A model generated the notes under the pieces. That model had not been told where the DNA came from. It searched no databases and saw nothing but the letters and a program-made list of their open reading frames with translations. Shown here in pieces: positions 8,451 through 9,998 of a stretch of 64,000 nucleotides of DNA (the first letter of the stretch is position 1; every line of letters starts with the position of its first letter). The stretch is taken from contig OZ116710.1 of the NCBI GenBank assembly GCA_964199315.1, positions 5,146,001-5,210,000 on the forward strand, given 5' to 3'. This DNA comes from Orbicella franksi. Taxonomy: Eukaryota. Both the position numbers and the translations under genes were made by a program.

Positions 8451-9998
8451 ATGCCAGTGAGATACCTTGAATGCCAAACTTATGAAAGTACACTGAATGC
8501 CTGCGCAAAAATCGATTGCACTAAAATGTACCACTCAGAACCTGAATGCCAGAATTCCTATGTAAACAAGTTAGAAGTGAATAATGACCGTAATTATTCT
8601 TGCTCAGAACTTGGCAAAGACAAGTCTATTTCAATAAAGGACTGTAGATCTCGATATGCTGAGTTTATTTATTATCATCGTGTTAAGGCTAGCTGCCATA
8701 TAGTTCGATGTGATCGTGAACCAAGCAGAATTTCAGTGAAACGGCTTACTCGTGTTCTACAAAAAAGCAGGAAAATAAGGAGGTTAATTAAAAAACACAT
8801 TATCAGGAATGTACCACGGTCATCTCGAATTCATCTTTATACTACATTTAGAAGTACTCGTTCAACTGTTGATTACAGTTATAACACCGTTCAATGCAGA
8901 TCTTCTCATAAGGTTAAACTAAGAAAAAAGCGAGTTTTCTCCGTGGGAATGAAATCTCATCTTGCTGTAGCATAACGCAGAGGAAATCGTAAGACTGCTA
9001 ACCTGAAGTTTAAGCTGAAAGGAAACGGTAGATTTCCAAATGCATCAAGTAAAGATATTTCAACAGAATCACGGGTTTATAAGAATTTGAATCACAGAGT
9101 CAACTATTGCCAATCAAGCCTTTGTACGGATATAGAAAAAAATCCAGGGCCAGTTTCAGTTGTTCCTTCTCAAACACTCCATGCATCATATTGTCAAGGT
9201 AATGTTGCAGTGTTTGGTCAAAATGCTGGACAGCAATGTGTAGCCATGTCTTTATGTAGTCTAATATATAACAACAAGAATTCAATTACTTCTGCAGAAG
9301 ACTTGGTTGAAATTATGAACATTGGTAATGAACTGTATTCTAGTCTATCAAGAATATCCAGAAACTCTTTTTTGATGTTAACAGAGTTACCAACAATGAT
9401 TACAGTGTTCGACACTAATTACAAGCTGCAGTATAGTGAAAGTTATACTTGCAGGCTACATGCAAACAGCAATTATTCAGTTGAAGACTTTCCTTACTCC
9501 ATGCCCCTGGATAGGGCTTTGCACACTTTACTAGCAGAAACCTATAACTCATTCCTGTTGACAATAGAGAATACTACTGTAGCAATTTATCATACTTTAG
9601 ATGGTACATTTAAAGTATTTGATTTCCATGCCAGAGATTCATTTGGTATGGCCCATCCTCAAGGAACATGTGTATTGTTGCATGCCCAGGGAATGAATAA
9701 ATTAGTGGAATACTTTCAGACTTCATATACTGTTGATTATGATATATAGCAAGAACCATTTCAGTTCATTCCTCAATCCCAACATTTTATTAATTTTCAG
9801 GTCATTCAGCATCTCTTTAATTGGCAAACTCCCAAAATAAAGCCCACAGAGCAAGATGTCATCAACCTTCTCAATACAAAGTACATCTTACAACTGGATC
9901 TGGACAGAAAAGTAATTGAACATGCTACACCAGCTAAAGAAACACAAGGTGATTCCCAAGAACAAGAGTCACCATCAAAGAAAGTAAAAACACAGTAA
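8451..9998 (+). pseudogene. Decayed ORF: basic N-terminal region, 2A-like motif (DIEKNPGP), herpes tegument-type cysteine protease (peptidase C76-like) domain
   Basis: Track ORFs 8451-8975 and 9087-9749 are in the same frame, separated only by TAA 8973-8975. The frame stays open past TAG 9747-9749 to TAA 9996-9998. DIEKNPGP at 9129-9152; ASYCQG...FGQNAGQQC (Cys 9237-9239); FDFHARD (D-x-H 9621-9629). Confidence 0.75.

Follow-up and report, generated by a model that had tools for sequence, protein, structure and literature searches.

Coral rolling-circle transposons of the HLE2/Helentron type carry, directly ahead of a herpesvirus-tegument-like deubiquitinase (VTD) domain, a 2A/StopGo-like motif which, judged from sequence comparison, is real and under selection at the protein level, its codons changing silently. 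On balance, we think that this motif causes weak or partial recoding at its Gly-Pro pair, the product being a transposase with an N-terminal deubiquitinase (DUB), in limited amount. The copy from which the analysis started lies in the window (the whole 64,000-nt stretch of Orbicella franksi DNA that was analysed, contig OZ116710.1, positions 5,146,001 to 5,210,000). It is a broken member of this coral transposon group; in its intact relatives there is one long frame.

The window element is a broken Helentron copy

The features of the element are as follows.

8117..11402 (+): non-autonomous HLE2/Helentron copy, an internal deletion derivative (TT at each end, sharp boundaries, sister copies)
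8119..8127 (+): 5' subterminal inverted repeat (read directly; reverse complement of 11371-11379)
8340..9800 (+): GT..AG intron removing the entire leader-2A-VTD stretch (joint 8337-9799, cut +2; one contig, polyA run X12)
8451..9149 (+): basic leader, 233 aa and pI 10.2 in an intact sister copy (RSR(Y/F) at 8646 and EPSR at 8718, both conserved; private stop at 8973)
9129..9152 (+): 2A/StopGo-like core DIEKNPG/P, the slash marking the putative break (conservation profile, codon test, leader-side search)
9153..9737 (+): herpes-tegument-like VTD deubiquitinase domain of the peptidase C76 type (catalytic Cys 9237, Asp 9621 and His 9627; the deletion cuts its C-terminal strand)
9735..9737 (+): deletion junction (P0001 tblastn match ends at residue 394; C2, C7, C9 and C10b resume at 9735)
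9801..9998 (+): final exon belonging to a second gene of the element, which is spliced (acceptor 9799-9800; RNA contig X1 has other sequence upstream of 9801)
10110..10376 (+): tandem repeat with a unit of 89 bp, present three times
11371..11396 (+): structures of the 3' end, read directly: subterminal inverted repeat at 11371-11379, then the terminal hairpin at 11382-11396

The window copy is a 3.3-kb Helentron that has lost its interior. Its boundaries are sharp: all five 5' ends and all five 3' ends compared align inside the element and diverge outside. Sister copies, ~96-99% identical, are found on C2, C7, C9 and C10 (on C10 as two pieces); all are internally deleted, and those of C2, C7, C9 and C10b rejoin the window match at 9735. 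The assignment to HLE2/Helentron is based on the TT ends, the subterminal inverted repeats and the 3' hairpin, which fit the pattern (short terminal inverted repeats, 3' stem-loop, TT ends) given in the available text of PMC11417382 and PMC4067079, the exact repeat being of 9 bp against the 12-16 nt quoted for this group. No Rep or helicase was found in the window copy. Its termini, and the domains DUF6570, Helitron_like_N and PIF1 of its relatives, bear out the rolling-circle transposon setting proposed in the initial annotation.

That annotation had described one frame, 8451-9998, with two in-frame stops, coding for a basic N-terminal region, DIEKNPGP and a protease domain. The translation agrees, with stops at 8973 (TAA), 9747 (TAG) and 9996, DIEKNPGP at 9129-9152, Cys at 9237 and D-F-H at 9621-9629; a strict D[VI]ExNPGP is expected by chance ~4e-5 times in the six frames of the window. 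The frame thus reads as stated, but it is not a single gene. Homology to the transposase stops at 9735-9737, and the second VTD-like region, DUF6570, Rep, PIF1 and endonuclease present in relatives are missing beyond that junction. Because the tail (9801-9998) is a separate exon with its own splice acceptor, put in frame by the deletion, the frame is a deletion chimaera. The tail has no Pfam family and is present solely in copies of the window family; no upstream partner exon for 9801 was found in 155 loci. The RPA-like ORF of the C4 family (see below) was tried as its counterpart and rejected, there being no match between them.

Two changes are private to the window copy: the stop at 8973, where the sister copies have Ser, and the Phe of DFH, where they have DSH (Ser in 69 of the 72 homologues bearing the D-x-H motif). 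The proposal that the catalytic residues are kept and that the usual DSH/DPH has become DFH was therefore right as to Cys, Asp and His, which align to PDB 8ADD, while the Phe is a peculiarity of this copy. With its stop and its deletion, the window copy is incapable of any skip/transposase scheme from the first ATG; the leader is intact in the C2 copy.

A protease of the VTD deubiquitinase class

By sequence and by predicted fold, the protease of the window element is a VTD/C76 deubiquitinase. It matches Pfam PF04843 (Herpes_teg_N) with an E-value of 1.5e-10 (41.5 bits versus a cut-off of 25) and, by sequence, 8ADD (E 6e-8). When the AF2 model was compared by Foldseek, 8ADD came out with an E-value of 2.8e-12 (TM 0.74 by target length) and the herpesvirus protease M48 (2J7Q) with 1.8e-7 at 16% identity. 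The catalytic Cys and Asp-x-His align to those of 8ADD, the Cys being 97% conserved in 31 representatives. The herpesvirus-tegument-like identity first suggested by eye is thus upheld by profile, by structure comparison and by conservation of the catalytic residues across the family. Most intact proteins have, behind the first, a further VTD-like region that is degenerate (own profile, 19 proteins; best i-E ~3e-6 to 1e-5). Among viral contigs, 19 pattern matches were obtained and none was confirmed as a relative.

8ADD is DrT1-VTD2, an internal domain (residues 300-520) of a zebrafish Helitron (PMC9741609, available text). According to the same source (Erven et al. 2022), VTD domains occur in Helentrons of vertebrates, insects, cnidarians and molluscs; those of zebrafish Helitrons cleave ubiquitin and NEDD8, with a Cys/Asp/His triad confirmed by mutation, and protection against proteasomal degradation was suggested as their role. 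The deubiquitinase half of the finding is therefore already known: the class has been described, crystallised and assayed in Helitrons, with cnidarian carriers noted, and the initial remark that no functional study of such proteins was known does not hold.

The motif is conserved as a peptide

Homologues were collected with the VTD alone, the query starting from the last Pro of the motif. This gave 89 proteins, of which 14 were dropped because their upstream part was too short. Among the 75 informative ones, the motif is strict in 66, a one-residue variant in 7 and decayed in 2. In the 31 representatives (<70% VTD identity, mean 49%), 27 are strict; the D, E, N, P, G and P of the core are 94-100% conserved, comparable to the catalytic Cys, whereas the x position is free (48%) and the residue past the last Pro is at just 19%. 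The likeness to the D(V/I)ExNPGP StopGo consensus seen in the window copy thus extends to the family, and a consensus rebuilt from its members keeps the core. Upstream, conservation is 90-97% at K(-23), H(-19) and L(-10) (97% for the Leu), within a pattern (Y/K, H, N, L) that reaches to about -24; the linker from the motif to the catalytic Cys varies from 27 to 33 residues.

Two further samples were scored. From the leader side (best 120 of 280 matches, a redundant set dominated by one family), 44 of the 54 long-enough matches have a strict motif, 7 a near one and 3 none. Of eighty metagenome loci chosen on VTD motifs, 40 have a strict motif and one more has it in another frame; 16 have a near one, 14 lack it and 9 are not scorable, most of the 14 carrying stops or frameshift remnants. 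In the codon test, made on 9 divergent loci out of 39 usable, the core had a pS of 0.79, which resembles the flanks (0.54-0.85), and a pN of 0.04, a value biased low because the rows were required to bear the motif. With silent substitution as frequent at the core as in the flanks, the constraint bears on the peptide rather than on the DNA.

The AF2 model shows at this place a helix, then a low-confidence loop lying outside the VTD fold. The upstream tract has its predicted helix and its conserved Leu at -10, yet it is Leu-poor overall and variable at -8. The window peptide has one Leu in -19..-10, against a Leu-rich tract in active eukaryotic peptides, and Thr before the Asp (-8), where viral StopGo prefers Gly. 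The same core follows two types of leader, one long and basic, the other shorter and hydrophobic.

Relatives with and without the motif

The closest long protein, P0001 (VTD 88% identical), aligns with the window only to its residue 394 and continues into DUF6570 and Helitron_like_N. In the more distant C4 family, an unbroken frame of 2549 aa comprises leader, motif, VTD, DUF6570, Rep and PIF1; its C-terminal end is endonuclease-like, by eye from motifs and with no Pfam match, and an RPA/SSB-like ORF lies downstream. The named homologues come from corals. For the leader, no Pfam family and no usable Atlas match were found; AF2 predicts confident helices in its EPSR-PxSS core.

In a distant branch without 2A, seven of nine proteins start at a Met and have the Cys at residue 25-28; a skip in the 2A-bearing ORFs would place it at residue 28-34. 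At three 2A-less loci of the coral's own genome, an in-frame stop stands two codons ahead of this Met, and a spliced upstream exon is possible. The location of the Met start near the same spot supports a putative processing role for the motif. Four other proteins (P0099-P0102) have an internal VTD, with ~390-450 residues upstream and no 2A; together with the internal DrT1-VTD2, they suggest that the VTD has no strict need for a free N-terminus. A tree of the DUF6570/Rep region requires 2 changes of the 2A label, in an alignment where 5 of 28 rows are under half filled; the long branches that meet in it preclude ordering the gains and losses of the 2A, Met-start and internal-VTD states.

Some side variants were recorded. 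A second 2A-VTD family (L067:3401-4263, L068:3590-4049, P0083-P0086) has the short hydrophobic leader, starting MGI...R-S-R-I-G. By eye, this start is like the leaders that sponge ankyrin and tick LINE ORF1 2A proteins have in the part of the PMC13405545 table available, and the RSR(Y/F) of the long leader may be related to its R-S-R. In the 2A-less family, a ~110-bp stretch at the VTD start is duplicated ~170 bp upstream (L062:4143-4253 and 4314-4424), in a 5' region with GT donor-like sites. In an own-genome ORF of 1401 aa (L066:984-5186), a weak match to the VTD occurs together with a chromodomain and a Ulp1 (C48) protease domain. Another of 560 aa (L065:3133-4812), present at two places on C8, has a weak VTD match; a Helitron domain was not found in it.

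RNA evidence

Contigs from RNA libraries cover the window family in two of four runs, the other two having given no reads for the intron test. They carry sister alleles rather than the window's, and their unspliced pieces may be DNA carry-over. The splice that removes the whole cassette (8339 to 9801) was seen in one of the four runs, two of which were without any reads. The polyA contig joins the first exon of the element, which has no ATG, directly to the last one; with the same donor, intact elements may bypass the transposase so as to express the RPA-like gene that lies downstream.

A relative of the intact C4 family (~90% identical) has a canonical 5'-UTR intron that is spliced in three of four runs, and in two of four the spliced contig continues through the leader, the motif and the start of the VTD. 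Among the differences listed for C4-type contigs, at least two fall inside the core, both silent.

Published reporter data on related peptides

The sole experimental data on close relatives of the peptide come from Snell and Matreyek 2026 (PMC13405545, available text and tables), where 3,271 non-viral 20-mers, some of them artificial variants, were assayed in a pooled fluorescent reporter; they show no skipping. Thirteen entries resemble the family, as assigned by identity or likeness to the homologues (source accessions being given for the short type only): none was classed as skipping, 10 were non-skipping and 3 were fall-off only, a class also assigned to many motif-less peptides in that table. 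By leader type, the calls were 5 non-skipping and 1 fall-off for the six long-leader 20-mers, and 5 and 2 for the seven short-leader ones. One 20-mer is identical to the last 20 residues of P0140 and one to those of P0086; another shares 19/20 residues with P0004 and another 16/20 with the window. The 13 exclude one further peptide whose core is similar, its upstream part being unlike the family. Six other family motifs are absent from the table, and the rows examined comprise neither the window's own peptide nor longer contexts.

The authors caution that single calls need confirmation and that a 20-residue insert may differ from the native context; their classifier was 86% right on its own training samples. 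The 20-mers begin at -19, so that they omit the conserved Y/K at -24/-23, and they were read by non-coral ribosomes. The 2A of FMDV requires >30 residues for full activity, and viral 2As can need native ribosomes (PMC12846837); canonical 2A cores can also be inactive, according to the available text of PMC3708506.

How the motif may act

Partial recoding is favoured by the conservation of the motif, the silent codon change, the variable linker, the Met-start layout of the 2A-less branch and the spliced RNA with leader, motif and VTD. On an intact element, some ribosomes would skip at Gly-Pro, some would drop off and some would read through. A successful skip would yield a free basic leader and a transposase beginning with Pro-VTD, a layout matching that which the 2A-less branch reaches by its Met start; where restart fails, less transposase would be made. 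The DUB, being attached, would shield the transposase complex against turnover driven by ubiquitin, in line with the proposal of Erven et al. for Helitron VTDs (PMC9741609, available text). Efficient skipping is disfavoured by the reporter results (0/13), the Leu-poor tract and the lack of Gly before the Asp.

A bolder possibility, which we hold to be rather unlikely, is polyprotein-like processing: the peptide would represent a new, Leu-poor StopGo class of ~25 residues in need of its full context or of cnidarian ribosomes, it would free the undescribed leader, and the DUB-first transposase could undo stalled-ribosome ubiquitination. If true, it would add DNA transposons to the carriers of StopGo, with no earlier case found in print.

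Alternatively, and in our opinion unlikely, the motif does not recode: the linker between leader and VTD would keep it as a short linear motif or as a site of proteolysis, or it entered with a 2A-type leader and has another role. The lack of skipping calls among the 13 peptides (PMC13405545, available part), the Leu-poor tract with Thr at -8 and the existence of internal VTDs without 2A would all be accounted for. However, the conserved positions track the StopGo consensus exactly, with a free x and a drop past the final Pro, and an identical core stands behind two different leaders. As to proteolysis, ubiquitin-type proteases cut after Gly-Gly, and Gly-Pro is a poor site for them.

The motif could also be an attenuator only, the leader being released at NPG and restart mostly failing, which would cap the transposase and leave full-length protein to read-through. 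The 3 fall-off calls and the self-restraint proposed for retrotransposon 2As (PMC3708506 and PMC13405545, available text) are in line with it. We nevertheless judge it improbable: the same class was given to many motif-less peptides by the imperfect classifier mentioned above, and the matching Met start of the 2A-less branch argues for restart.

To return to partial recoding, its product depends on what follows the motif. In each of the 14 long 2A-bearing ORFs that were checked, 2A and PGP occur once; LxGG/RGG is present in only 2 of the 14, at unrelated places, and no Gly-Gly site downstream of the VTD is shared across them. With a single 2A per ORF, and VTD and transposase in one frame after it, a skip would free the leader, not the DUB. 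The initial idea that skipping releases a virus-like anti-ubiquitin enzyme acting apart from the transposase is very improbable and, for intact elements, largely refuted on their sequences: a skip would indeed give the VTD its own N-terminus, and leader-intact deletion copies such as C10 could yield a short VTD product, but on C4 the VTD stays fused to Rep, PIF1 and the endonuclease-like end, and HELIANO also places Herpes_teg_N inside the RepHel ORF (PMC11417382, available text).

Relation to known systems

The assayed Helitron VTDs (DrT1-VTD1/2, DrT2-VTD, 8ADD; PMC9741609, available text) share with the window domain the fold, the Cys...Asp-x-His site and the transposon class; cnidarian Helitrons are named there as carriers, and the second degenerate VTD-like region is also found in the coral family. 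They differ in that their acidic pair D376/E377 is Thr-Glu in the window domain and that none of the assayed domains is from coral. The main text of that article, in its available part, has no 'NPGP', 'skipping' or 'self-cleav'. HLE2 subgroup b/Helentrons, as described in the available text of PMC11417382 and PMC4067079, have in common with the coral elements DUF6570, a C-terminal endonuclease, an RPA-like second gene, short terminal inverted repeats, a 3' stem-loop, TT ends and Herpes_teg_N in the RepHel ORF; the leader is undescribed in these texts, and 'skipping' is absent from that of PMC11417382.

The 2As of APE-type non-LTR retrotransposons (Odon et al. 2013, PMC3708506, available text) likewise carry D(V/I)ExNPGP close to the N-terminus in one long ORF; their activities range from high to nil, and self-restraint was proposed for them. 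By comparison, the coral carrier is a DNA transposon, a DUB comes next and the main leader is basic and Leu-poor. Neither 'helitron' nor 'DNA transposon' occurs in that text. Peptides of the coral 2A-VTD family are contained in the PMC13405545 tables, an Acropora millepora protein having 'Viral tegument-like DUBs' as its top PDB match, and DUB domains next to retrotransposon 2As are noted there. The available bioRxiv text has no 'helitron', 'helicase', 'PIF1', 'coral' or 'cnidaria', so the Helitron link is undrawn in it. The word 'helitron' is also absent from Rao 2025, a PNAS 2026 paper and a September 2026 preprint, as are three family motifs from the Rao 2025 supplements. Among the matches listed, which exclude paywalled papers, theses and Repbase reports, none describes a 2A in Helitrons or DNA transposons. 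Compared with the herpesvirus tegument DUB M48 (2J7Q), the window domain has the same fold, is transposon-borne and is closer to 8ADD.

The deubiquitinase alone is thus not new; the candidate 2A ahead of the Helentron VTD is the part for which we found no paper. The documented carriers of StopGo are RNA viruses, retrotransposons and a small number of host genes; with a selected case in a DNA transposon, its range would come to include another class of element. Strong conservation set against negative 20-mer data also provides a sharp test of the upstream context and host ribosomes that StopGo needs, and the 2A-bearing and Met-start branches offer a natural comparison for why Helentrons put a DUB at the front of the transposase.

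Neighbouring features

Two paralogous Fringe-like/galactosyltransferase ORFs, 87% identical, are found at 7009-8077 (-) and 15297-16397 (-). The 5' end of the Helentron (8117) lies only ~40 bp upstream of the likely start codon (8077) of the first, so that the insertion may affect its expression. The window further contains reverse-transcriptase fragments and an F-box ORF, 4475-6448 (-) and 17395-18084 (-), and an open Pao/BEL LTR retrotransposon polyprotein of 1826 aa at 56465-61945 (-).
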